The position numbers were made by a program, and so were the translations under genes. The notes under the pieces were generated by a model. The model was given only the letters and a program-made list of their open reading frames with translations, was not told where the DNA came from and searched no databases. This document shows, piece after piece, positions 10,110 through 32,975 of a DNA stretch of 64,000 nucleotides. The stretch is from Candidatus Binataceae bacterium (GTDB taxonomy: Bacteria; Desulfobacterota; Binatia; Binatales; Binataceae), in NCBI GenBank assembly GCA_050736695.1, contig JBOHWH010000135.1:28504-92503 (forward strand), given 5' to 3'. The first letter of the stretch is position 1, and every line of letters starts with the position of its first letter.

Positions 10110-10187
10110 GGACGCATAGCTCAGCTCGGTTAGAGCACATGCCTCACATGCATGGGGTCGCAGGTTCAAATCCTGCTGCGTCCACCA
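10110..10187 (+). tRNA. tRNA-Val (anticodon CAC), CCA encoded
   Basis: Cloverleaf: acceptor GGACGCA/TGCGTCC, D-arm GCTC..GAGC, anticodon stem CATGC/GCATG with loop CTCACAT, T-arm GCAGG-TTCAAAT-CCTGC, then discriminator A and CCA. Confidence 0.85.
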
Positions 10188-10745
10188 TCCAGTCCCTCAG
10201 TTTACGAACATCTCGGAGAATCGCAGGAAATCCGCGCATGTGCGCGCGATTTGCGATCGCGCAGGGACCCGGAGAACGACCCTTTCGGCGTGATTCGCCA
10301 GAATCGGCCGATTTCTCTCTCGGCGCGAATTGCCTAGGTCCCACCCCACGCCTGGCGAGACGACTTCCCATGTCGGCGCGACAGAGCGATGTGTGCTGAG
10401 GACGGTCGGTCGCGCCGAAGCGCCGGCCCGAGAAGGAGAACCACATGAACGCGAATACCAAACCGGTCGCAGCCACGCCGACGCCAGCGCTGCCCTCGAA
10501 AAACAGGAAGGACGCACCTCGGCCATCGCGGTCATCGCGTGCGGCGGCCAAAGCGCAGAAGTTGGTCTGTCGATATTGCGGCAGCGACGATCTCGCGCCG
10601 TCGTTCAAGAAGCGACGCGACGCCCGCTGCCGCGCCTGCTTCAAGAAGCGCTACGGTTCTGCTACGCGCAAGAAGGACACGCGCACTCGGAACACGAAGA
10701 CCGCGAAGTAGTTTCGCGGCGCAACCAAAGTAATTGGGGCCGGGT
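10178..10745 (+). repeat. Left copy of an imperfect direct repeat (tRNA-Val 3' end plus small-gene region) marking the left border of a genomic island
   Basis: Sequence from the tRNA 3' strand (ctgcgtccacca...) through the 88-aa ORF recurs at 32606-32975. The second copy differs by base substitutions, a roughly 170-bp segment absent from it, and frame-disrupting indels. Confidence 0.7.
10445..10711 (+). CDS. Small basic zinc-ribbon protein (C4: CRYCG...CRAC), hypothetical
   Basis: GAAGGAGAA RBS lies 4 nt before the ATG. 88 aa, Lys/Arg-rich with CxxC...CxxC. A degraded second copy lies at 32690-32950. Confidence 0.5.
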   Translation: MNANTKPVAATPTPALPSKNRKDAPRPSRSSRAAAKAQKLVCRYCGSDDLAPSFKKRRDARCRACFKKRYGSATRKKDTRTRNTKTAK

Positions 10746-14180: not shown

Positions 14181-14807
14181 ATGACAGTCGAGGAATACTT
14201 AGACATCCGAACAAAAGTAATGGCGCACCCCAACGGCCGCGCCGAGATTGAATGGCTGCGAAAGGCCGGCCGTCCGAAAGATTCCAACGATCTCGCGTTG
14301 CGGTTGGCGTCAGTGGTGACCTCGTCGGGTTTCGAATACCGTCCCGAGCTTTGGGAGCGCATCGGGTCGGCGTTGCGCCGCGGTCGACGAATCTTCCCTG
14401 ATGTGTTTGGAAACAAGAATAAGGCGGCGGCAATCGAAAAGATTTGGCGCGACCGACGTGCACTGTTCACGACGTTCAAAGCGATCCATACCCCGCAAGA
14501 GGCGCTCAAGTGGTGCGAGGGAATCCCGTATGTTCAGGGTCCGGTGTTGAGGTACCAAGCCGTACGCGACCTGGGTGTCGCCGATGTGGCGAAGCCAGAT
14601 CGGCATTTGGAGCGCATCGCTGAAAGGGCCGGTGAGTTCCTGAATGAACTAAGCAAACGGCTGGCGCGTTCAACGGGCGACAGCGTAGGAATGGTGGATA
14701 TGGTCCTCTGGAACGGCGCGCGCTTGCGGATAATTCCGGGCATCAGCCGTCGGCGTGGCCGTGTCGCAGATTGTCAGCCGCGCGCTCGCGCGTCCCGACG
14801 CCGATGA
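14181..14807 (+). CDS. Hypothetical protein (possible HhH-type DNA-binding segment)
   Basis: 208-aa ORF. The segment GIPYVQGPVLRYQAVRDLGVADVAKPDRHLERI loosely resembles a helix-hairpin-helix / HhH-GPD motif. No firm assignment. Confidence 0.3.
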   Translation: MTVEEYLDIRTKVMAHPNGRAEIEWLRKAGRPKDSNDLALRLASVVTSSGFEYRPELWERIGSALRRGRRIFPDVFGNKNKAAAIEKIWRDRRALFTTFKAIHTPQEALKWCEGIPYVQGPVLRYQAVRDLGVADVAKPDRHLERIAERAGEFLNELSKRLARSTGDSVGMVDMVLWNGARLRIIPGISRRRGRVADCQPRARASRRR

Positions 14808-15429
14808 AAAGATCCTACATAGCCGTGCGGCGGATAATTCTGATTCAAGTCACGTTTTTCTTAGGACAACCGAACGACTTTCCCTTTCTCCGCGGCGAGC
14901 GATTTGCGCCTGGGTCGCGGACGTTTCTCGGCCGATGAAGTGTCGCCCGGAGAACCGGTGACTGTCCATCTACCTGCCGAAAATCCGCGCTTAATCTGAT
15001 CCAGCGGAATATGAAGTTTATCAAGTACTCTTCAACGGATCACTCCCTCGTGCTTCAGTCCCAGACTCATTTGGGCGATTCTTTTTCGTATTCGGCGTAA
15101 TTTCCGTGCTTTAGACCTCACATGAAATTGGGACAGCGTTCGAGAGGCGTTTGCGTGCATCGCAACTTCGGTTGTGGGACAGAAAGGGCTTGGCGCGGAC
15201 GAGAAGTCCGACGGCGCCCAGCTACTATGATGCTGTGCGCTAGGCGCATTGCTAGACGAAGGAGTTTACCGGGACCGCCTCAAGACTCTCACCTGCACCC
15301 GCGATGTCTCGGGGATATGACCAAGAGTCAGGAATGGGGACGCAAATTGGTGTAGGATTCGTCTTCGCGGCCCAGTGCGCTCGCGGAGTGCTTCGGTGCC
15401 GGTTCGATGGCAGCCAGGTTGATGGCGGA

Positions 15430-17295
15430 ATGATGTCCCGACGCGACACGGAACCTGAACGCAAAACTCGCCTAATGCGAGTGGATCCGAAGCTTCACAT
15501 TCTGGGCTGGAAAATGGTCGCATTCAACCCCGATCTTGATTTATCCGCATGCACGGCACATGCGATTACTGAATACCCGACTGACGAAGGCCCGGCCGAT
15601 TACGCTTTGGCTCTCAACGGACGTATCGTCGGAATTATCGAGGCGAAAAAGCTCTCCCTCGGGCCCCAGAATGTCCTGACGCAGGCGGAGCGCTATGCCC
15701 GCAGCCTGCCGCCCAGCGAGTTAAATTTCAACGGCCTGCGCGCGCCGTTCCTGTACTCCACGAATGGCGAGGTGATCTGGTTTCATGACGTGCGCTCGCC
15801 TGCGAGTCGCTCGCGCCGCATCGCCAACTTTCACACGCCGGTCGCTCTGAGCGAGATGCTCGGGCGCGACTTCGAGGCCGAGTGCTATCGGCTGAGGGCG
15901 CTACCTAACATCCACAGCCTTCTGCGCCCCTATCAGCGAGAGGCCAACGCAGCGATCGAGCGAGGGATCGCGGAGCGGAAGCGCGTGATGCTCGTCGCGA
16001 TGGCGACCGGCACCGGCAAGACCTTTACGATGGTGAATCAGGTCTACCGGCTGATGAAATCGGGCGTCGGTCGCCGGATACTCTTCCTCGTCGATCGCCG
16101 GGCGCTGGCGGCGCAGGCGGTTCGCGAGTTTGCCTCGTTCGAGGCGGCGCCGGGCCTAAAGTTCGACAAGATTTACGAGGTTTACAGCCAGCGCTTCCAG
16201 AAAGACGATCTCGATCCCAGCGAGAAGTTCGATCCCAAGGTCATGCCCAACGCCTACCTCACGGATCCGAAGCCGGGAGCGGCGTTCGTTTACGTGAGCA
16301 CTATCCAGCGGATGGCGCGGTATCTGTTTCCCGACCGCAGCTTTGGGGAACGCGACGACGAGGACGAAAACGACCTGCCCGAGCCTCTGCCCATTCCAAT
16401 TCACGCCTTCGACCTGATCATCGCCGACGAATGCCACCGCGGCTACACCGCCGCCGAGCAGTCTCTGTGGCGCGACACGCTCGACCACTTCGATGCGATC
16501 AAAATCGGGCTTACCGCCACGCCCGCGCATCACACCACCGCCTACTTTCGCGACATCATTTACCGCTACGATTACCGCCGCGCCGTGGCCGAAGGCTTCC
16601 TGGTCGATTATGACGCCATCGCGATCAAGTCCGGCGTGCTGGTCAAGGGCATCTTCCTTAAAGAAGGCGATCGCGTGCAGACGGTTGATCCACAATCCGG
16701 CTTGACCGGCATGGACCAGCTCGAAGATCAGCGCCAATTCGACTCGACCGACGTCGAGCGCAAGATCACCGTTCCCGACACCAACAAAAAAATCGTCGAG
16801 GAACTGAAGAAGTACGCGCTGGCGCACGAGCAGAAGTTCGGGCGTTTCCCCAAAACGCTCATCTTTGCGGTCAACGACAAGCCGCACGTTTCACACGCCG
16901 ACCAGCTCGTTGATCTCTGCCGCGACATCTTCGCTCGAGGCGAAGCCTTCGTTGCCAAAATCACGGGGATCGTGGATCGCCCGTTGCAACGGATCCGCGA
17001 GTTCCGCAACCGTCCCGAGCCCGCGATCGTAGTGTCGGTGGACCTAATGTCCACCGGCGTGGACATTCCCAATCTTGAATTCATCGTGTTCGCGCGCCCC
17101 GTCAAGTCGCGCATCCTGTGGGAGCAGATGCTCGGCCGCGGTACCCGCCTCGGCAGCCTGACGCCGCCCAAGTCGCACTTCACGGTCTTCGATTGTTTCG
17201 ATGGCACGCTGTTCAATTACTTCAAGAACGCATCCGCCTTCACGGAAGGCGATTATGCCGTACTTGACTCCGACCCTCGCATGAGTTATATTTGA
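15430..17295 (+). CDS. hsdR: Type I restriction enzyme R subunit, N-terminal portion (HSDR_N PD-(D/E)xK nuclease + SF2 helicase motifs I-VI); gene apparently interrupted after motif VI
   Basis: The nuclease motif (ADYALALNGRIVGIIEAKK), Walker A (MATGTGKT), DECH box (LIIADECHRG) and motif VI (QMLGRGTRL) are all present. The ORF ends at 17295, immediately before the IS1595 transposase gene. The expected C-terminal domain is encoded separately at 20046-20972. Confidence 0.8.
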   Translation: MMSRRDTEPERKTRLMRVDPKLHILGWKMVAFNPDLDLSACTAHAITEYPTDEGPADYALALNGRIVGIIEAKKLSLGPQNVLTQAERYARSLPPSELNFNGLRAPFLYSTNGEVIWFHDVRSPASRSRRIANFHTPVALSEMLGRDFEAECYRLRALPNIHSLLRPYQREANAAIERGIAERKRVMLVAMATGTGKTFTMVNQVYRLMKSGVGRRILFLVDRRALAAQAVREFASFEAAPGLKFDKIYEVYSQRFQKDDLDPSEKFDPKVMPNAYLTDPKPGAAFVYVSTIQRMARYLFPDRSFGERDDEDENDLPEPLPIPIHAFDLIIADECHRGYTAAEQSLWRDTLDHFDAIKIGLTATPAHHTTAYFRDIIYRYDYRRAVAEGFLVDYDAIAIKSGVLVKGIFLKEGDRVQTVDPQSGLTGMDQLEDQRQFDSTDVERKITVPDTNKKIVEELKKYALAHEQKFGRFPKTLIFAVNDKPHVSHADQLVDLCRDIFARGEAFVAKITGIVDRPLQRIREFRNRPEPAIVVSVDLMSTGVDIPNLEFIVFARPVKSRILWEQMLGRGTRLGSLTPPKSHFTVFDCFDGTLFNYFKNASAFTEGDYAVLDSDPRMSYI

Positions 17296-17298
17296 TTC

Positions 17299-18225
17299 AT
17301 GCGAGAGAAGAAGCCCAAAGAGCCATTGGTTCCGCAACTTACCCTGAGTCAGTTCGCGGGCATGTTTCCCGATGAAGCCGCCTGCAAAGCCTATCTGGTC
17401 GCACGCCGCTGGCCGCAAGGCGTCCGTTGCCCGCGCTGCCAGAATGAGAAGGTGTACGAACTGAAAACCCGCCCCTTCCACTGGGTTTGCAAGAAGTGCG
17501 GCAAAACGCCTTATCGCTTCTCGGTCACGGTCGGAACCATCTTTGAGAATACCAATTACAAGTTGCTTGTTTGGTTCAAGGTTCTGCACCTGATGGTGAC
17601 CAGCAAGAAGGGAATCAGCGCGCTTCAAATCCATCGCATGATCGGTTCCGGTTCGTACCGTACCGCATGGTTCATGTGCCATCGGCTCCGCGCCGGTATG
17701 GCCGATCCCGAGTTTCGCCAGTTGATGGGCATCGTCGAAGTGGACGAAACCTATATCGGCGGCAAGGCTCAGAACATGCACCTCAACAAGCGCAAGGCGC
17801 TCGCGCTGACCGGAACCAAAGGTAAGGCGACCGTCATCGGCGCGATCTCCCGCAAGGGCAACGTGGTCTGCAAGGTGATCGAGAATACCGATCAGTTCAC
17901 GCTCGATAGGTTCGTTCGTAAAGCGGTCAATCAAGAGCGCGTCGATATGATCATGTCGGATGAGCACGGCGGTTATCGCCTGCTCGGCACTGGACCGCAG
18001 GCAATGCCGCACGGCGTCGTGCGCCACAGCGCGGGCGAATACGTTCACGGCATTGTGCATACGAATACGATCGAAGGATTCTGGAGCCTGCTCAAGCGGG
18101 GAATCATGGGCAGCTATCACAAAGTCAGCAAGAAATATCTGCCGCTCTACATCAACGAGTTTGTGTTCCGGTACAACAATCGCAAGAATCCGGACATCTT
18201 CGGGAGCGCGATAGCAGGATGCTGA
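17299..18225 (+). CDS. IS1595-family (ISXO2-like) transposase
   Basis: N-terminal transposase zinc-ribbon (CPRCQNEK...CKKCGK) followed by an ISXO2-like DDE domain (VDETYIGG...MSDEHGGY...HTNTIEGFWSLLKRG). Confidence 0.85.
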   Translation: MREKKPKEPLVPQLTLSQFAGMFPDEAACKAYLVARRWPQGVRCPRCQNEKVYELKTRPFHWVCKKCGKTPYRFSVTVGTIFENTNYKLLVWFKVLHLMVTSKKGISALQIHRMIGSGSYRTAWFMCHRLRAGMADPEFRQLMGIVEVDETYIGGKAQNMHLNKRKALALTGTKGKATVIGAISRKGNVVCKVIENTDQFTLDRFVRKAVNQERVDMIMSDEHGGYRLLGTGPQAMPHGVVRHSAGEYVHGIVHTNTIEGFWSLLKRGIMGSYHKVSKKYLPLYINEFVFRYNNRKNPDIFGSAIAGC

Positions 18226-18418
18226 AGCGACCAGACTGGCAGGCGCTTCAGCGGTCGCCAGCCAGTAGACCAACGCAACTCGACTTGTTTCCGAGAGTGC
18301 GGCGCTATGTCTAAACGAGAACCTCATGGTGTTTACGAGAACAAATAAACTAGGCGTACCAGAGCGACAATCCCGACAATGATTCCAAGCCATTGAAGCC
18401 AAGAAAGGTCACACACAA

Positions 18419-18739
18419 ATGATTCGATACTATCTTGCGGTATTCGCTCAGATAGCGAATCTAGTCGGCACTGCGACGATTTTTTTTGCACTGTCTTTTA
18501 CCTCTATCGGATTCCGCGCAGCGGTAGAGCCAACGCTCGGCAGAACCGAATTGTGCTTTGGTGGAGTGGCATTTATCGATTCCGTAGGCCATTTGATGAG
18601 CGCACCGTGCCCAGAGAACTCCACCGGCCAGATCGCGATCGTGAATAGCTTTCATCCAACAATGGCGCTTGTCGGTTTGGGGCTCGTTGTATTCGGTTCG
18701 TTATTTGCGCTTCTGACAATTCAAAAGCCGAAGGTGTAA
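18419..18739 (+). CDS. Hypothetical small membrane protein
   Basis: 106 aa with three hydrophobic segments, in the low-GC passenger region. Confidence 0.35.
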   Translation: MIRYYLAVFAQIANLVGTATIFFALSFTSIGFRAAVEPTLGRTELCFGGVAFIDSVGHLMSAPCPENSTGQIAIVNSFHPTMALVGLGLVVFGSLFALLTIQKPKV

Positions 18740-18743
18740 CGCG

Positions 18744-18887
18744 ATGTCCAAAGAAGGCGAAGCCAAAAAGAAAATTATTCACTTCTACTGTCGCCCGTGC
18801 GGCGAGTACCATCTGAAAACGCATCCGCACTATGCCGCGATGAAGCGGCGAGCCGAGCAGCGCAGGAAAGCCGAGAACGGACGATAA
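18744..18887 (+). CDS. Hypothetical 47-aa protein with CxxC..H...H pattern
   Basis: ATG...TAA ORF not in the ORF track (under 60 aa): MSKEGEAKKKIIHFYCRPCGEYHLKTHPHYAAMKRRAEQRRKAENGR, Lys/Arg-rich. Sits between two passenger genes. Confidence 0.25.
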   Translation: MSKEGEAKKKIIHFYCRPCGEYHLKTHPHYAAMKRRAEQRRKAENGR

Positions 18888-18891
18888 GGGT

Positions 18892-19293
18892 ATGCGAAAA
18901 TTTAACGCTGCGGTTTCGGCGCTCGCAATCGTGTTCGTCTTCGGGTGTTCGAGTCCGACCGATGACTTTGCCGTCGGTAAGACGTACCAGGTAGGTGCGG
19001 GCAAGCACGGATATGTGTGCGCCGGTGCGCCGCATCCGGATGATGCTGAGGTGGATCTAAGCGGAGCAAGCCTCAACCTTCTCAAAGGGCGAGAGTTCAT
19101 CACACAACCTGGGTGTGCAGGCCTGATAGAGTTTGATCGCATCAAAGTTATGGGCGTGAAAGATGACTATTTGGTGGTCGAGGTCGTTTGGGGGTACGAT
19201 CCCACTCGCGATGTGGACGCAACTGGATACGTCGGAATGATGGAGCCGGATTGTCTCGCGCCGGCCGCCCTTCCGGATTTTTCAAAGAAGTGA
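18892..19293 (+). CDS. Hypothetical lipoprotein
   Basis: Signal peptide with lipobox (LAIVFVFGCSS). Confidence 0.5.
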   Translation: MRKFNAAVSALAIVFVFGCSSPTDDFAVGKTYQVGAGKHGYVCAGAPHPDDAEVDLSGASLNLLKGREFITQPGCAGLIEFDRIKVMGVKDDYLVVEVVWGYDPTRDVDATGYVGMMEPDCLAPAALPDFSKK

Positions 19294-19986
19294 ATCAACG
19301 CATTCGGGGGCGCAGCGTCCCACGACCAATTCGCAGCTACCGGCTTGAACAGGAAACTTCAACGCAAGCGACCTGATTTCGTGTTTCAATCCTGCGCGTG
19401 TAAGCGCCCGCGAAAGTCGGCCAACGATCGAGGGCTGGGGACGCTCGCCGCCAATCCTGATAAGCAGACCGGATACATTAGGTGGGATGTCGGGATTGGT
19501 CATACCTCCGCCAAGGCCGAGCGACAGGAAAAGCCGTTGAAATTCCAGCGCGTAACGTCCAGCCTCGCTATCATAGGGATGGACGGCGATTGAAATATCT
19601 GTTTTTTCTTCGGCGGAAAGTGGGCGCAGCGATTCGTAAATTATCCGCCGTTGCTCTCTAGTGATTGTTCGTTGTTGATTACGATGTATTCCCCTTAGTT
19701 CGGTACGAAGCATCCCTATTTCCGCTTTCATTTCGGGCGACGCAGAGCCTTCGGTTCTCGAAAGGAAACTCGCTATCTTCTCATCCTTGAGTTTGTGGCG
19801 CTCTTCGTGAATGAGAAGTTGGCCGTCCCGCGTGGATATTTGGTGGCCGAAGGACCAAGACATCGCAAAATACATTACGATGCCAATGACGAGCAGCAAC
19901 CCGAAAAAGATAACAGGAGCCCCCGCGACCATCTTATACTCCTGCTCCCAATGTCCGACGACCCAACTCAAGATGGCCTCTTTCAT
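19282..19986 (-). CDS. Hypothetical membrane-anchored protein
   Basis: GGGAGA RBS before the internal ATG at 19986, an N-terminal TM segment, then a charged and coiled region. Confidence 0.4.
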   Translation of the reverse strand: MKEAILSWVVGHWEQEYKMVAGAPVIFFGLLLVIGIVMYFAMSWSFGHQISTRDGQLLIHEERHKLKDEKIASFLSRTEGSASPEMKAEIGMLRTELRGIHRNQQRTITREQRRIIYESLRPLSAEEKTDISIAVHPYDSEAGRYALEFQRLFLSLGLGGGMTNPDIPPNVSGLLIRIGGERPQPSIVGRLSRALTRAGLKHEIRSLALKFPVQAGSCELVVGRCAPECVDSLL

Positions 19987-20045
19987 ATAGATCTCCCGCC
20001 CTTGAGATAGACGTTCCCCGTCCATCCCTCAAGGCGAGGGGACTA

Positions 20046-20972
20046 TTGGCGTACTCCCGGCTAAGAGTCAAGTCCAGCATAATCGCCTTCACGGAAGACC
20101 CGCCCGATCGGCCCACGCGCACCATCGAGGAGATCATCCAGGCGATCTGGGACAACCGGGACCGCGCGTACAACGTCCGATGCCTCTGCCGCCGTTTGCT
20201 CCGTATCGACAAGGAGATGTCCGGAAACGCCCGTGAGGCGTTTGCGGCCTACTTCTCGGACGGCGATATGAAGGAGTTTGCGAACCGCGTGCCGCGAGCG
20301 ATTACCGACGATTTCTCGGCGACGATGAAGCTCTTGCGCGATTCTCAATTCCAGCGGCTTCTCGTGAACTATGAGCGCGCACGGCCCTATTTCATCGTCG
20401 CCCACGAGGCCACCGACGAAGTCTCCTCGCGCATTCTGATCCGCGATGCCGCCGGCAACGAGCACCGACCCGAGGACTATCTCGCCGCGTTCGCCCGTTT
20501 CGTAAGCGAGAACCCAGATCGAATCGAGGCTATCCGCATCCTCCTGAACCGTCCCAAAGACTGGAGCACCAACGCGCTGGCGGAATTGCGCCGAAAGCTC
20601 GCCACCGCGCCGCAGCATTTCACGGAAGAGAACTTGAGGCGTGCACACGCGGCGCGCTACAACAAGGCATTGGTCGATATCATCTCGATGGTCAAGCATG
20701 CCGCCAAAGATGAAGAGCCGCTGCTGAGCGCCGCCGAGCGCGTCGATCGCGCGCTCCAGCGCCTCGCCATCGGCCACAAGTTCACCACCGAGCAGCAACG
20801 ATGGCTCGATCGCATCCGCTCGCACCTGGTCGAGAATCTCTCGATTAGCCGCGACGATTTCGATATCGTGCCCGTCCTTTCCAATCCCGGCGGATGGAAG
20901 CCAGCCGATCGCGCATTCGCCGGTAAACTCAAGCCCCTTCTGTCTGCGATAAATGAGGCTGTCGCCCAGTGA
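20046..20972 (+). CDS. hsdR: Type I restriction enzyme R subunit, C-terminal domain fragment (EcoEI_R_C-like) separated from the helicase part
   Basis: 308 aa resembling the HsdR C-terminal domain (...FTTEQQRWLDRIRSHLVENLSISRDDFDIVPVL...). It ends 4 nt into the hsdM start (operon coupling) and lies 2.75 kb downstream of the hsdR helicase fragment. Confidence 0.6.
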   Translation: MAYSRLRVKSSIIAFTEDPPDRPTRTIEEIIQAIWDNRDRAYNVRCLCRRLLRIDKEMSGNAREAFAAYFSDGDMKEFANRVPRAITDDFSATMKLLRDSQFQRLLVNYERARPYFIVAHEATDEVSSRILIRDAAGNEHRPEDYLAAFARFVSENPDRIEAIRILLNRPKDWSTNALAELRRKLATAPQHFTEENLRRAHAARYNKALVDIISMVKHAAKDEEPLLSAAERVDRALQRLAIGHKFTTEQQRWLDRIRSHLVENLSISRDDFDIVPVLSNPGGWKPADRAFAGKLKPLLSAINEAVAQ

Positions 20973-21240
20973 ATGAGAAACGGAACCATCAGATCGACGT
21001 CGTGCAGAAGCTATGGGGCTTCTGTCACGTCCTTCGCCACGACGGGATCGGTTACGGCGAGTATATCGAGCAGATCACTTTCCTGCTCTATCTCAAGATG
21101 GCCGACGAAAAGGGCGTCGCGCTGCCCAAAGGATGCGGCTGGCAGCCCCTGCGCGCCAAAAGCGGCACGGAACTGCTCGACGGCTACGCCGACATGCTGC
21201 GCGCTCTGGGAAAGTCGCCCGGCCTGATCGGCGACATCTC
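20969..21240 (+). pseudogene. hsdM: Type I R-M methyltransferase subunit HsdM, N-terminal roughly 90 codons only (truncated)
   Basis: HsdM N-terminal domain signature (LWGFCHVLRHDGIGYGEYIEQITFLLYLKMADE). Sense is lost after ...PGLIGDI at about 21240, where an unrelated divergent ORF abuts. No hsdS is in the window. Confidence 0.65.
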
Positions 21241-21501
21241 CTCGAGCTCCCAGTGTTTAAATTCGCTCTCGATACGAACGTACCGGAACGACTTACCGGC
21301 TTTTCTCCGATACCAGGGCCGCTGTCCTCTCTTGAAAAAGATGGCGTGAAGCAAAGCCGTCCAAGCGATTGTCATCAGGACCAGATAGTGTGGCGTCCGA
21401 AAGGCCGACCCCGGTCTGTTGTACACCTCAACGGCACTTATCGCCGCAGCGCGAGCTTTTTCGAGATGCGCTCGTGCCGGCCGTGTCAGGCGTGACGGCA
21501 T
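21184..21501 (-). CDS. Hypothetical protein fragment truncated at the hsdM junction
   Basis: AGGAGGCAAACC RBS before the ATG at 21501. The C-terminus runs antisense into the hsdM remnant, so the gene is not intact. Confidence 0.25.
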   Translation of the reverse strand: MPSRLTRPARAHLEKARAAAISAVEVYNRPGSAFRTPHYLVLMTIAWTALLHAIFFKRGQRPWYRRKAGKSFRYVRIESEFKHWELEEMSPIRPGDFPRARSMSA

Positions 21502-22626: not shown

Positions 22627-24255
22627 CTACCAGGTTCCACGATTTCTTCCCAGCGAGCGTGCGATACTTGCCGGCGCCCATCCATCCCAACGATGAGTAC
22701 GCGGAGATCGGTAATCATCGTCGTAATCGTCGGCGAATGGATCGCCGACCAGGCGCTGGTCCGAACCTGGCGGATTACGAGCTGAGTAGTACTCGATCTT
22801 CTGCGGTGACTTGCACAGCGCCAGCATGAGCGCTTCAGCCCGATCGGGCGAAGGCACGCCACGAGCCCGCGCGCTTTCTTTCGATTCGATTTTCAAGCGC
22901 CCTTGGGAATCGAGTTCCCAGCGAATGCCTGCGAGTTGGCCGATCGTCTCCTCGTCCGTCAATCTATCGACTTGATCGCGTTCCAACGCGTCGGCGAGCG
23001 CCTGGTAGAAGCAGGCTTTCTGGTTGACGAAGCGCCGCGTCGGATCGTTTTCCCCGAGGTTGGGTTTGCTCTCGCAGGGCAGCGCCACGTTGATCAATTC
23101 GACCGGAAACCTTTCGTCGCGCAGGTGCAAGCCGAAGTTGTGGCCGATGCCGATCGCATCGACGCGGACCACCGCGAGGCGCTGGCGAAATTCGCTGAGG
23201 AAGCGAACCACCTGTCCGCGGGTATCCTCTCCGCGCCAGGCACCCATCGCGACAATTCTCCATCGGTCGCCGCAGCGCTCACATACATAGACGACGGTTT
23301 CAGCCTGGCCGCCGCCGACATCCACTCCGGCGAAGAGCGGAGCATTTCCCGCCGCGTGGTTTGAATCCTTGAGCGCACGCTGCTTGGCCCGTTCTAGCCA
23401 GATCAGTTTGATTAAGGCGTCTTGCGCCTGGTCCGGAAACCGCGCCAGTACTCGCGACAGCCAGTTTGGAGAGCTGGCTTCGTTGCCATGCCACCAGGAC
23501 TGATGCTGATCGTAAACCCAGCGTTTGCCAACCAGATAAGAAACCAGATTGCGATCGAGTGGGCCGCCGTCTGCGGGATCCATCTGCAGCAGCTGTTCAA
23601 GCGTGATGCCTTTCAGATTCGGCGAGTCAAAAGCGCCGATCGTGAAGCAGTTCCAAAGGCCGCGCTCTTTGCTGAAGGCGTCGAAAAAGGCGCCCGACGG
23701 GATGGTTGGATTCCCCGCCATCACGATGTGCACGATGCCTCCCGCCATCGTTCCGGCAATCGCGTCCCAGATGCCCGATTCAATCCCGGGTGCTTCGTCG
23801 GCGATGATGAGAACGTATTTTCCGTGATAACCCTGAAAGTTTTCTGACTGATTGGTCGAAAAACCGATCGCGAAGTTGTTGTCGTCGCGGAACTTGAGCT
23901 CGGTTGTTTTCAATTTCGGGTAGGGGACTTTGGCGCGTTCCACCAGCCGGTGGATCTCGGTCCAGAGCTGGGTGCGCACCTGCCGCTGAGTGGGCGAGGT
24001 GGTCAGGACGATGCCTTCGGGAAAACGCGCCAACCACCACAGCGCGGCGATAGCGAGCGTGAAGGTCTTGCCGACGCCGTGGCACGCCTTGATTGCGGTT
24101 CTTCTGCGACTCTTGATCGACCGCAAAATCTCGGCCTCGGTGGTCCAGAGGTCCACGCCCAGTACATGGGTGGCGAACAGAACCGGATCGCTCATTACCT
24201 TCTTTGCGAAAAGCTTTTGTTCGTCAGAGAGTTCGTGATAACTTTTGACTTTCAT
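22627..24255 (-). CDS. terL: Phage terminase large subunit (ATPase + nuclease)
   Basis: Walker A GVGKT in an N-terminal ATPase domain (IKACHGVGKTFTLAIAALWW), Walker B-like LIIADEA, and a C-terminal RNaseH-like nuclease region. GAGGAAGAAG RBS before the ATG at 24255. Confidence 0.85.
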   Translation of the reverse strand: MKVKSYHELSDEQKLFAKKVMSDPVLFATHVLGVDLWTTEAEILRSIKSRRRTAIKACHGVGKTFTLAIAALWWLARFPEGIVLTTSPTQRQVRTQLWTEIHRLVERAKVPYPKLKTTELKFRDDNNFAIGFSTNQSENFQGYHGKYVLIIADEAPGIESGIWDAIAGTMAGGIVHIVMAGNPTIPSGAFFDAFSKERGLWNCFTIGAFDSPNLKGITLEQLLQMDPADGGPLDRNLVSYLVGKRWVYDQHQSWWHGNEASSPNWLSRVLARFPDQAQDALIKLIWLERAKQRALKDSNHAAGNAPLFAGVDVGGGQAETVVYVCERCGDRWRIVAMGAWRGEDTRGQVVRFLSEFRQRLAVVRVDAIGIGHNFGLHLRDERFPVELINVALPCESKPNLGENDPTRRFVNQKACFYQALADALERDQVDRLTDEETIGQLAGIRWELDSQGRLKIESKESARARGVPSPDRAEALMLALCKSPQKIEYYSARNPPGSDQRLVGDPFADDYDDDYRSPRTHRWDGWAPASIARSLGRNRGTW

Positions 24256-24781
24256 TGTCTTCTTCCTCAATCGGTCCGATTGCCTCGAGTAGCTGGACGA
24301 GTGTTAGGGGCGCACCATCTTTGCCGGTCAGCTCGTGGCGCTGGGGTGCCGCATAGCCGTTGATCTGCGCCGCATGGCGGAGCACCTTGACCCCGGCTTC
24401 AACCGACCGAGGATTGCCTTTGCGTATGCCGGGTTGGAGGTTCATGAACATCTCTTCGCACCGGGAGGTGTCGAGCTTGCGAAACTCGTCGGCTGCAATC
24501 GACGGATCGCGCGCGATCGCTCTCCGAAATGCTTTGTGAATCGCCTGCCGCGAGATTTGAAAGTCAGGCAGGAACGTGACTCCGTCCGGGATCGCGACGA
24601 TCGCCTGGGCTTGGTGTTTCCCCACGCGGGCGATCTGGTCCGCGATCGCGTCGAAGGTCAGGCCAATGCGTTTTAGATGAAGCGTTTCGGCTTCGATCCA
24701 CCTCGCCCTGAGCACCGCCGCAGAAACTACCGTTGGACGATGGGTGCCGCGCCAAGTTCCGTCCGGGTGGCGCCTCATCAC
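24224..24781 (-). CDS. Putative phage terminase small subunit
   Basis: 185-aa ORF immediately upstream of and overlapping terL, downstream of the ParB-MTase; position and size are consistent with a small terminase. Confidence 0.35.
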   Translation of the reverse strand: MMRRHPDGTWRGTHRPTVVSAAVLRARWIEAETLHLKRIGLTFDAIADQIARVGKHQAQAIVAIPDGVTFLPDFQISRQAIHKAFRRAIARDPSIAADEFRKLDTSRCEEMFMNLQPGIRKGNPRSVEAGVKVLRHAAQINGYAAPQRHELTGKDGAPLTLVQLLEAIGPIEEEDNESQKLSRTL

Positions 24782-26133
24782 TCACCCACCAATTCGGGCT
24801 TGAGGCCGAGCGCCGCCATGCGTTCCAGCGCAACCGCGACGAACGGCGGGGATTTTTCAATCGCGTAACAGCGCCGACCGGTCTGCTCGGCCGCGACCAA
24901 CTGCGATCCGCTGCCAGAGAACGGCTCGTAACAGATGTCGCCGCGCTCGGTGTGCATCTCCATGGGAAGCGCGAACAACCGGCAAGGCTTACAGGTTGGA
25001 TGTGCGTCGGTCTCGACTTCCGAACTTGGGACTTCCCAGACCGTGCTGGGAAACTCGCCCGCGATTTTGCCGAGATCTGAGCGTAGCGTCTTGGGTTTCT
25101 CGCCTCTGATCCAACCGAACAAACATGGTTCGTGCTGCCAGAGGTAGGTCGAGTAGGTCAACACCGGGCGACTCTTGACCCAAATGATCTGCTGGTGAAC
25201 GAAGGCGCCGAACTCGCCCCAGATCGATTCGAGCATCATCTGGCGGCGCGATGCGTGCCAGCAATACCACGCGGCGTTGCGGACAATCGCATGCTCGATC
25301 GCCATCCCGATGAACCCGCGGTAGAGTTCGACTCCTGCCTCCTCGGCGTTCTTAACGTCCGCGCTTTTCGCTTCCACGTACACCCCCGACCAATTCTTGT
25401 CGCGGTTTGCAGCGCCTCGATTTCCCCAGCTCTGTGGATGGGAACCGCCGGTGTACCCGACCGCGTAGGGCGGGTCGGTCGCGAACAGGACCGCGCGCTC
25501 GTCGCCCATCAACCGCGCGACGTCCTCGGGTTTGGTTGCGTCACCGCAGAGCAGGCGATGCGCGCCCACTCGCCAGAGTTGGTTCGCGCGCGTGCCCCAT
25601 TTTTTCTGGAGTTCGGCTGCTTGCTCGATTTGTGCCGGCGGTTCGGCCTGCGGATGGATCAGGCTCCACAGCCGGTCGCCTGCGGTACGCCGAAGGAGAT
25701 CTTCAACCGCGGGGCTATCGGTTCTCACGGTCTGGAGAAGCGTTCCGATTCGCTCGGAGTCGGATTCGGCTAGGGAAGCGAGCGGATCGAGGGTAAGCAA
25801 CAGTTTGTCCGCCTCCGCTTCATCGAGGTCCAGAATGAGCACCGGAACTTCGAAGTCCGGCGTGGTTTCGGCGCGCAAGTGACCGTCAATCAACATGAGC
25901 CTTCCGTTTCCCAGTTCGCGGGCAAGCAGCGCGTCGGCGTACCCGATCTCGGCGAGAAGGTCACGCAGGGCATTCGCCTGAGCCTTTGGATGGCGCCGCC
26001 AGTTTTTCGGATTGGAAAGCAGGTCCCGAGCCGGGACTCGACGCAGCTCTCTTATGCGATCCCGAATCGCGATGGCGCCGTTGGAATTTGTTGATGTTGC
26101 GTTAGCCATTCGACATCTCGGTTCAATTCTCAT
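24778..26133 (-). CDS. ParB-like nuclease domain fused to an N-4/N-6 DNA methyltransferase (phage-type orphan MTase)
   Basis: N-terminal ParB/sulfiredoxin-like motif (LIDGHLRAE) and a C-terminal MTase with the DPPY motif (FATDPPYAVGY) plus a SAM-binding region (YEPFSGSGSQLVAAEQTGRRCYAIE). Confidence 0.85.
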   Translation of the reverse strand: MRIEPRCRMANATSTNSNGAIAIRDRIRELRRVPARDLLSNPKNWRRHPKAQANALRDLLAEIGYADALLARELGNGRLMLIDGHLRAETTPDFEVPVLILDLDEAEADKLLLTLDPLASLAESDSERIGTLLQTVRTDSPAVEDLLRRTAGDRLWSLIHPQAEPPAQIEQAAELQKKWGTRANQLWRVGAHRLLCGDATKPEDVARLMGDERAVLFATDPPYAVGYTGGSHPQSWGNRGAANRDKNWSGVYVEAKSADVKNAEEAGVELYRGFIGMAIEHAIVRNAAWYCWHASRRQMMLESIWGEFGAFVHQQIIWVKSRPVLTYSTYLWQHEPCLFGWIRGEKPKTLRSDLGKIAGEFPSTVWEVPSSEVETDAHPTCKPCRLFALPMEMHTERGDICYEPFSGSGSQLVAAEQTGRRCYAIEKSPPFVAVALERMAALGLKPELVGE

Positions 26134-32605: not shown

Positions 32606-32975
32606 CTGCGTCATCCACCATTCAGTCTCTTAGTATTCGCACATCTCGGAGAGCCGCGCGAAATCCGCGCTGGCCCGAGAAGGAGAACCACGTGAACGCG
32701 AATACTAAACCCGTCGCTGCTACGCCGCCGCCGGCGCTGCCTTCGAAAAACAGGAAGGACGCGCCTCGGCCATCGCGGTCATCGCGTGCAGGCGGCCCAA
32801 GCGGAGAATTTGGTTTGTCGATACTGCGGCAGCGAAGATCTCGCGCCGTCGTTCAAGAAGCGACGCCCGATGCCGCGCCTGCTTCAAGAACCGCTACGGT
32901 TCGGCTCCGCGCAAGAAGGCCACGCGCACTCGGAAGCCGAAGGCTGCGAAGTAGTTCGCGGCGCAACCAATGTCA
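32606..32975 (+). repeat. Right copy of the direct repeat (tRNA-Val 3'-end-like sequence plus pseudogenised copy of the small zinc-ribbon gene), marking the right border of the island
   Basis: ctgcgtcatccacca...acatctcggaga...gaaggagaaccacgtgaacgcgaatac... is collinear with 10178-10745, apart from a roughly 170-bp segment that it lacks and several indels. Confidence 0.7.
32690..32950 (+). pseudogene. Degraded paralog of the small zinc-ribbon protein gene (frame-disrupting 1-bp and 5-bp indels)
   Basis: Same N-terminus (MNANTKPVAATPPPALPSKNRKDAPRPSRSSRA), but the CxxC region appears only in a shifted frame (the 32786 ORF: ...LVCRYCGSEDLAPSFKKRR...). Confidence 0.55.

Follow-up and report, generated by a model that had tools for sequence, protein, structure and literature searches.

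A Type I restriction–modification remnant in a Candidatus Binataceae genome, with a cargo-carrying IS1595-family insertion sequence in hsdR and a truncated hsdM

The stretch of DNA analysed here, which we will call the window, comprises 64 kb (64,000 nt) of contig JBOHWH010000135.1 from a Candidatus Binataceae genome (assembly GCA_050736695.1). Between positions 15430 and 21501 it holds, in this order, the 5′ part of a Type I restriction–modification (RM) gene, hsdR, an IS1595-family insertion sequence (IS) with genes of its own, the 3′ part of hsdR, a 5′ fragment of hsdM and, on the opposite strand, the stub of a candidate defence gene (Table 1). A sequence-only reading, made before this analysis, had described the region as a decayed Type I locus whose hsdR is split by an IS1595 element, and the domain content, the terminal repeats, the target-site duplication and an empty orthologous site all agree with that description.

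Table 1. Features of the RM remnant and of the element within it. Positions are those of the window; aa, amino acids; ORF, open reading frame; GC3, GC content at third codon positions.
Feature	Position	Strand	Description	Basis or remark
hsdR 5′ part	15430..17247	+	codons 1-606; PD-(D/E)xK nuclease region (D...EAK), DEAD/ResIII motor, Helicase_C	Pfam and NCBIfam
Target-site duplication, left copy	17239..17247	.	TTCACGGAA; 9 bp	direct repeat
Complete IS1595-family transporter IS	17248..20087	+	2,840 bp, 54% GC	inverted repeats and target duplication; absent from orthologous hsdR
Left inverted repeat	17248..17270	+	GGCGATTATGCCGTACTTGACTC; 23 bp	
IS1595-family DDE transposase	17299..18225	+	308 aa, intact	PF12760, PF12762, NF033547
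Candidate 31-codon ORF	18219..18314	+	MLKRPDWQALQ...PTQLDLFPRVRRYV; -1 frame; ATG overlaps last transposase codons (GGATGCTGA)	status uncertain
p106 passenger ORF	18419..18739	+	106 aa, predicted two-pass membrane protein	GC3 0.53
p47 passenger gene	18744..18887	+	47-aa Cys/His mini-protein, basic tail	recurrent accessory gene of the IS clade
p133 passenger ORF	18892..19293	+	133 aa, putative lipoprotein, signal peptide ending ...VFVFGC	sequence reading only
p234 passenger gene	19282..19986 (probable)	-	234 aa; membrane anchor, long helix, small alpha/beta domain	adjoins right repeat
Right inverted repeat	20065..20087	-	reverse complement GGCGATTATGCTGGACTTGACTC	21/23 identical to left repeat
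Target-site duplication, right copy	20088..20096	.	TTCACGGAA; 9 bp, direct repeat	perfect match to left copy
hsdR 3′ part	20088..20972	+	codons 604-897, including three duplicated codons; EcoEI_R_C domain	PF08463, E=2e-36
hsdM 5′ fragment	20969..21241	+	~92/485 codons; start overlaps hsdR stop (GTGA)	HsdM_N only
DUF3644 / PADLOC PDC-S19 candidate defence gene, 5′ fragment	21238..21501	-	~88 of ~350 codons	own ribosome-binding site
	

The 5′ ORF of hsdR extends from 15304 to 17295 (663 codons, with the real start at about 15430) and encodes the HSDR_N, ResIII/DEAD and Helicase_C domains, and the 3′ ORF occupies 20046-20972 (308 codons), its TTG start at 20046 being preceded at 5-9 nt by a GAGG-like motif. 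On the NCBIfam model PRK11448, which has 1,123 positions, the 5′ piece aligns to 233-816 and the 3′ piece to 838-1118; since these positions run on from one another, the two pieces are consecutive parts of one protein. Fusing them in silico, a check that the sequence-only reading had proposed, did restore one continuous protein. When 15430-17247 is joined to 20097-20972, the result is an open frame of 2,694 nt (897 codons), with neither part containing a stop or a frameshift, and its 897-aa product gives a single, end-to-end PRK11448 match (residues 10-895 against positions 233-1118, 564 bits). The scores of the fused protein lie under the NCBIfam equivalog cut-offs (564 vs 729 for PRK11448 and 268 vs 550 for restrict_EcoAI).

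Type IB systems such as EcoAI and EcoEI possess an HsdR with a C-terminal EcoEI_R_C domain and are encoded by an hsdR-hsdM-hsdS operon. The reconstructed HsdR resembles them in its set of domains, from HSDR_N through the ResIII/DEAD motor and Helicase_C to EcoEI_R_C, and in the PRK11448 alignment along its whole length, and the hsdR stop overlaps the hsdM start in the window as it does in intact relatives. The window differs from such systems in that its hsdR is interrupted, its hsdM has about 19% of the expected length and no hsdS was found in it, so that one is looking at a remnant, not a system.

A search for HsdR homologs over 5.8 billion proteins returned thousands of matches, of which the best 120 were inspected. 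With few exceptions these are undivided proteins, about 870-930 aa in length, in which the helicase and EcoEI_R_C domains occur together, and on this ground we rejected an hsdR that is naturally divided into two genes; the only short matches among the 120 come from two other assemblies of this DNA and represent the truncated protein of the window itself. The top homolog, P0001, is 90% identical at 99% query coverage and, at 897 aa, has exactly the length of the fused HsdR. Its locus (L001, in GCA_037025765.1) has the gene order HTH-hsdR(897)-hsdM(485)-hsdS(491), where HTH stands for a helix-turn-helix controller gene.

Both inverted repeats and a target-site duplication, features that the sequence-only reading had suggested looking for, are present at the two junctions. 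The repeat search turned up a direct repeat of 14 nt (17235-17248 and 20084-20097), overlapped by an inverted repeat of 33 nt, and the ends of the element were set at 17248 and 20087 by placing its tip at GG, as in relatives. The 22-nt core of the repeat pattern occurs exactly twice in the 64 kb, against 0 occurrences expected from 100 shuffles; both copies lie at the outer ends, and the search of the window found no internal copy within the element. The hsdR-derived sequence ends at 17247, the final 15 codons and the stop of the 5′ ORF being IS sequence, and it resumes at 20088 within the duplicated target, the 3′ ORF having begun in IS-derived codons. The earlier reading thus had the region of the insertion site right, but hsdR ends at 17247, not at 17295, and resumes at 20088, not at 20046. 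Its insert size also needs correction, from 2.75 kb to 2,840 bp, as does its GC content of roughly 50%: the element has 54% GC overall (53% in the passenger part) versus 60-61% in the flanks, and it is only the 400-nt windows that fall to 49-50%. The truncated hsdR ORF and the ATG of the transposase gene are 4 nt apart, a spacing that is incidental: the hsdR frame meets its stop only after 15 codons of the IS leader.

The orthologous locus L001 provides an empty site. Its DNA is 85.7% identical to that of the window up to 17248 and 88% identical from 20085 onward, and the two alignments overlap by 13 nt, precisely where the target is present as the single copy GCCTTCACCGAAG (single-copy target TTCACCGAA). 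The whole 2.84 kb between the two duplicated targets is absent from this site.

The transposase matches DDE_Tnp_IS1595 (PF12762) over its full length (1-153/153, E=5e-36) and NF033547 at 2-215/215, with 187 bits vs a cut-off of 75. Its N-terminal zinc ribbon, Zn_ribbon_IS1595 (PF12760, 1-46/46, E=1e-13), contains a CPRC...CKKC motif. The nearest other transposase on record is 77% identical; annotated plasmid records, in which the only label is 'IS1595 family transposase', reach at most 44% identity, and one source assigns the transposase to a Candidatus Binataceae genome bin. As nothing on record exceeds 77% identity, ISfinder practice would call for a new name.

To place the element among its relatives, 78 loci encoding related transposases (33-78% identity) were fetched, and inverted repeats were sought around each. 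More than 40 relatives carry a repeat pair with a common tip consensus, GGCGATTAT...CTTGAC (GGCGATTATGC....CTTGAC). Those with a repeat pair measure 1.7-4.0 kb, with no bare IS of about 1 kb among them, so all of them carry cargo. Their target duplications are mostly 8 bp (AACTAGTT, AAATATTT, TTTGCATA, CTGATAAA and others), with 9 bp in L006 and L046. For the IS1595 family, a duplication of usually 8 bp, a DDE domain and an N-terminal zinc finger in all subgroups except IS1016 have been described (PMC8101967). The window element shares with the transporter ISs of this family a lone transposase that combines the DDE_Tnp_IS1595 domain with a zinc ribbon at its N terminus, short repeats starting with GG, a duplication of 8-9 bp and, inside the repeats, genes with no role in transposition; it stands apart in a transposase at most 77% identical to any on record and in a duplication of 9 bp rather than 8. 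Members of the ISNwi1 subgroup have ends of the form ggnnatTAT and measure 1.75-4.75 kb when they bear passengers; the tips GGCGATTAT fit that pattern, and the element may belong to this subgroup.

A side observation concerns the choice of target within the clade. Near-identical palindromic targets hold different elements with 56-70% transposase identity (L012, L037, L081, L042 and L009), and in the IS flanks the target TGAACTAGTTCA recurs in three genomes, three times in all, and TGAAATATTTCA was seen once, which would point to a strong target-site preference for TGAA-N4-TTCA with an AANNNNTT duplication.

The hsdM ORF (20969-21349, 126 codons) begins with a 4-nt overlap with the hsdR stop, which bears out the stop/start coupling read from the sequence earlier, and it lacks the N6_Mtase catalytic domain. 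At the DNA level the likeness to an intact hsdM breaks off at 21244, and at the protein level it covers residues 1-95, close to the 90 or so codons of the earlier estimate. On the opposite strand, the ORF at 21184-21501 matches DUF3644 (2-75/183) and PDC-S19 (3-84/353, E=7e-28); the PDC-S19 match ends at codon 88, that is, at 21238, and full-length PDC-S19 proteins have about 330-350 aa. This is the divergent ORF fragment that had been seen to collide with hsdM, and its ribosome-binding site is the AGGAGG found 7 nt 5′ of its ATG. Codon ~92 of hsdM is thus joined tail to tail to codon ~88 of the PDC-S19 gene within 6 bp, 21238-21244. Using the HsdS of the intact relative as a tblastn query gave no match in the 64-kb window, in keeping with the absence of hsdS already remarked on, nor could any further hsdM, or the HTH controller gene that lies 5′ of hsdR in intact relatives, be detected there. 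Type I enzymes assemble as R2M2S1. With hsdM cut to about 92 codons and hsdS absent, HsdR has nothing to assemble with; and because hsdM and hsdS are lost, methylation and target recognition are impossible and excision of the IS cannot revive the locus.

The repeats and the duplication enclose four ORFs plus a tiny overlapping one, so the proposal that this is a transposon with passenger genes, not a bare IS, holds. Three of them (p106, p47 and p133) are tightly packed on one strand, and p234 lies within a minus-strand ORF at 19282-20025. The cargo has a GC3 of 0.53-0.65, the transposase 0.73 and hsdR 0.78. None of the four passenger proteins has a family match in Pfam, NCBIfam, PADLOC or PHROGs, and p106 and p133, which have no homolog in the 78 related loci, are found only in this copy.

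Taken together, we consider it very probable that the locus is a dead Type I RM module of the EcoAI/EcoEI-like kind which suffered two independent lesions, the insertion of a 2,840-bp transporter IS in hsdR and a deletion through hsdM and hsdS. In the first lesion, the IS, moving as a single unit, would have entered hsdR behind codon 606, at the near-palindromic target TTCACGGAA. To judge from the family, the DDE transposase would have attached to the terminal repeats of 23 bp and linked the ends to a target cut with a 9-bp stagger, and the duplication would stem from repair of that cut. As a result, the nuclease and motor part of HsdR would now end after 15 IS-encoded codons, leaving EcoEI_R_C stranded 2.84 kb 3′, apparently with no expression signals of its own. 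In the second, a deletion with its junction at 21238-21244 would have taken hsdM from codon ~93 on, all of hsdS and whatever followed, together with the 3′ three-quarters of the convergent PDC-S19/DUF3644 gene. Neither part of hsdR shows any other damage and the two copies of the target still agree perfectly, from which we infer that the decay, in both events, is recent; any ranking of the two lesions in time, or dating of them, would likewise be inferred.

A number of points weigh against this account. At 9 bp the duplication is one longer than is normal for the family, 8 bp, and lengths of 7, 9 or 11 bp are formally possible because the target CTTCACGGAAG is nearly palindromic; the choice of 9 depends solely on setting the tip at GG, where relatives have it. 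The empty site belongs to a different organism (86-88% DNA identity) and not to a sister strain, and a 30-mer representing the empty site in the genome's own sequence had 0 matches in metagenome contigs. The identical copies that the sequence-only reading had advised seeking were not found: the 64-kb window contains no second copy of the exact element, the exact transposase is on record at this locus only, and a 30-mer of the left repeat had no match in the JGI metagenome contigs. It is therefore the repeats, the duplication and the orthologue's empty site, and not multiple copies, that make the case for mobility. Finally, the window sequence is that of a metagenome-assembled genome.

Among other histories, one would have the cargo arrive apart from the transposase. 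A bare IS of about 1 kb would have inserted first, followed later by 1.8 kb of passenger DNA with a right repeat from another copy, and the result would be a nested or composite scar. We think this very unlikely, given that only two copies of the repeat exist and both are at the outer ends, that a perfect 9-bp duplication flanks the entire 2,840 bp while the orthologous site lacks all of it, and that the relatives with a repeat pair, more than 40 in number, all measure 1.7 kb or more. The layout of transposase, p47 and an opposite-strand p234-like gene, moreover, recurs in L099, whose transposase is 65% identical. The GC3 of the cargo, which is below that of the transposase, would fit a separate origin, as would the lack of counterparts of p106 and p133 in any related element, and the orientation of p47, which varies among relatives, implies that cargo has been exchanged over time; such reshuffling, however, probably took place inside the element before it was inserted.

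Less probable again is a natural or functional split, with HsdR made as two polypeptides and the arrangement a selected variant, for example, a reversible restriction switch operated by IS excision. One might be tempted by two hsdR parts that are free of stops and frameshifts and by the GAGG-like motif upstream of the TTG at 20046, but the 5′ ORF ends and the 3′ ORF starts in codons derived from the IS, nearly all of the best 120 homologs are single proteins, and an HsdR next to a 92-codon hsdM, with hsdS absent, has no partners. Least likely of all is an assembly artefact in which a metagenomic mis-join placed an IS from a foreign genome inside hsdR: although the source is metagenome-assembled, repeats are classic points of mis-joining and the GC content of the insert differs from that of its flanks, a mis-join would yield no precise 9-bp target duplication on both sides of perfect IS tips, and the same junctions occur at 99.99% identity in three assemblies (the window, GCA_975255925.1 and Logan SRR27067722), which may share reads and are hence incompletely independent.

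With the insertion and deletion taken as the history of the locus, the cargo itself can be considered. The p47 protein consists of KIIHFYCRPCGEYHLKTHPHY followed by a basic tail, and the residues F, C, C, Y, K and H are invariant in its family. Homologs occur, in either orientation, in 13 of the 27 related elements whose cargo ORFs were catalogued. In the core of the protein, the proportion of synonymous differences (pS) is 0.80 vs 0.12 for nonsynonymous ones (pN), a pS/pN of about 6.5, and because pS exceeds pN in 66/66 pairs we regard p47 as a real gene, one under strong purifying selection. The family comprises 41 protein clusters, none of which has a Pfam family, and when the surroundings of homologs were looked up, all three of the independent ones adjoined an IS1595 transposase or its remnant. 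An 80-aa protein encoded by L035 has a p47-like C-terminal end.

An AlphaFold (AF2) model of p47 shows a beta-hairpin and a helix, with a predicted local distance difference test (pLDDT) score of 82; neither the sequence profile nor the structure found a match in the PDB. The protein is probably zinc-binding. That it is a copy of the zinc ribbon of the transposase was not supported, hhalign returning a probability of 3.5% despite the likeness, by eye, of YHLKTHPHY to YELKTRPFHW. IS1 InsA is a small zinc-finger protein that binds the ends of its IS and represses transposition. It resembles p47 in being a small Cys/His protein with a basic region inside an IS of the IS1/IS1595 superfamily, whereas p47 is a separate gene located 3′ of the transposase in either orientation, and the likeness is one of analogy. 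By that analogy, our best guess is that p47 may be a nucleic-acid-binding accessory or regulator of the element.

The p234 protein has 88 representative homologs. One of them is the p234-like gene at the right end of L099, in the shared layout described above, and in L100 and L101 the p234 homologs begin just inside IS1595-like repeats. We also considered whether other large cargo proteins are distant relatives of p234 and rejected this, as a hidden Markov model built from 45 homologs matched only the window's own p234 among the cargo ORFs of the 27 elements. The membrane proteins are, at best guess, exchangeable passengers. In the literature covered, which did not include ISfinder or the 2009 paper named below, we found no description of a p47-type Cys/His mini-protein or a p234-type membrane protein as conserved IS cargo.

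In the more distant elements of the clade, p47 is replaced by a small basic protein of another family. Ten elements (L016, L017, L022, L028, L029, L031, L037, L038, L044 and L081) encode one soon after the transposase; these proteins have 44-64 aa, read MPKAKPVSLHPLTFHEALKA...KRRK or MGKSLxMSSxGxDFDxFxKAL..., and start about 60-110 nt after the transposase stop. In elements with the MPKAKP type, the small protein is usually followed by an overlapping gene for a protein of ~260-330 aa (about 290 aa) that has a signal peptide or a membrane segment.

Directly 3′ of the transposase stop there is a conserved stretch of about 95 nt, present at the same position in L006-L013, L042 and L099, which contains the candidate 31-codon ORF. 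This ORF is kept in 10 of the 11 close relatives examined; one relative, L036, has an in-frame stop, and among the closest relatives changes in its PTQLDLFPRARR stretch are almost only synonymous. A hairpin of about 11 bp can be drawn across the transposase stop (GCTGAAGCG...CGCTTCAGC), with one apparent compensatory change in relatives, as judged by eye. As for a structured RNA at this stop, a 116-nt segment folds no better than its shuffles (z = -0.68).

One could go further and see in this IS1595 clade a structured mobile unit. Conserved, hitherto undescribed accessory genes (p47 of ~45-60 aa or the alternative small basic protein, and a possible 31-codon ORF translationally coupled to the transposase stop) would be combined with a slot at the right repeat for exchangeable membrane-anchored or secreted proteins; p47 would bind DNA or RNA and regulate transposition or serve as its cofactor, the envelope proteins would be a selectable payload, acting, for example, in exclusion or against phages, and the insertion in this defence cluster would be a single instance of a cargo shuttle widespread in soil bacteria. 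We put this forward as a speculation that is, on balance, rather doubtful.

The remnant lies between the PDC-S19 stub and an OGG-like gene at 14181-14807, which encodes 208 aa and matches the PADLOC OGG profile (97-202/215, E=2e-16), with no match in Pfam or NCBIfam. The surrounding stretch begins at a tRNA-Val (10110-10187) and holds a large serine recombinase, DUF2924, a phage-type large terminase and a DNA methylase, so that the neighbourhood looks like an integrated element with a decayed defence cluster. On the 3′ side of the remnant, we noted a large terminase (PHROG 2, E=6e-32), a PHROG 645 match and an N6/N4 DNA methylase at 22627-24270, 24224-24781 and 24778-26133. Just 3′ of the tRNA-Val, at 10445-10711, is a gene for an 88-aa basic protein with a CxxC...CxxC pattern, of which a frameshifted, ~89%-identical copy lies 22 kb away at ~32692-32960. 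The two copies bracket the serine recombinase, the RM remnant, the terminase, the methylase, a sedolisin-like peptidase and a PQQ beta-propeller protein, and the integrated element may extend from one to the other.

Decay of such modules is not peculiar to the window, as two of the three closest relatives examined carry decayed hsdRMS genes. In L084 (12688-14613), hsdM is split into 110 + 376 aa and hsdS encodes 164 aa; in L085 (12691-14064), an hsdM of 457 aa abuts conjugation genes and hsdS is missing. Both modules adjoin SSB, ArdC, polyvalent-protein and type IV secretion genes and appear to travel on conjugative or integrative elements. That IS insertions and deletions inactivate restriction and other defence genes in defence islands is general and well known, and the insertion and adjacent deletion seen here, in a cluster with an OGG-like gene and a PDC-S19 candidate, show no unusual feature in this respect.

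For those annotating this genome, the practical consequence is that both 'HsdR-like' genes should be recorded as pseudogene fragments, as should the short 'HsdM' gene and the DUF3644 stub, and the four hypothetical genes between the hsdR pieces should be assigned to a mobile element. The Binataceae genome should not be counted as holding this Type I system. Siguier, Gagnevin and Chandler are said to have described, in 2009, IS1595-family insertion sequences with passenger genes under the name 'transporter IS'. The transporter IS is a kind of element already known, and the decay of a defence locus is well understood. Both this concept and the IS1595-family features are established in PMC8101967, PMC3129680 and PMC11891212, which cite Siguier et al. 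2009. What the locus does offer is a cleanly delimited example of a cargo-carrying IS1595 element, with both ends, the duplication and the empty site, from an uncultured soil lineage. The recurrent mini-protein and the membrane cargo are the only part that might perhaps repay more work; should p47 and the recurrent membrane protein prove to be accessories of transposition, they would add to the knowledge of a poorly studied IS family.

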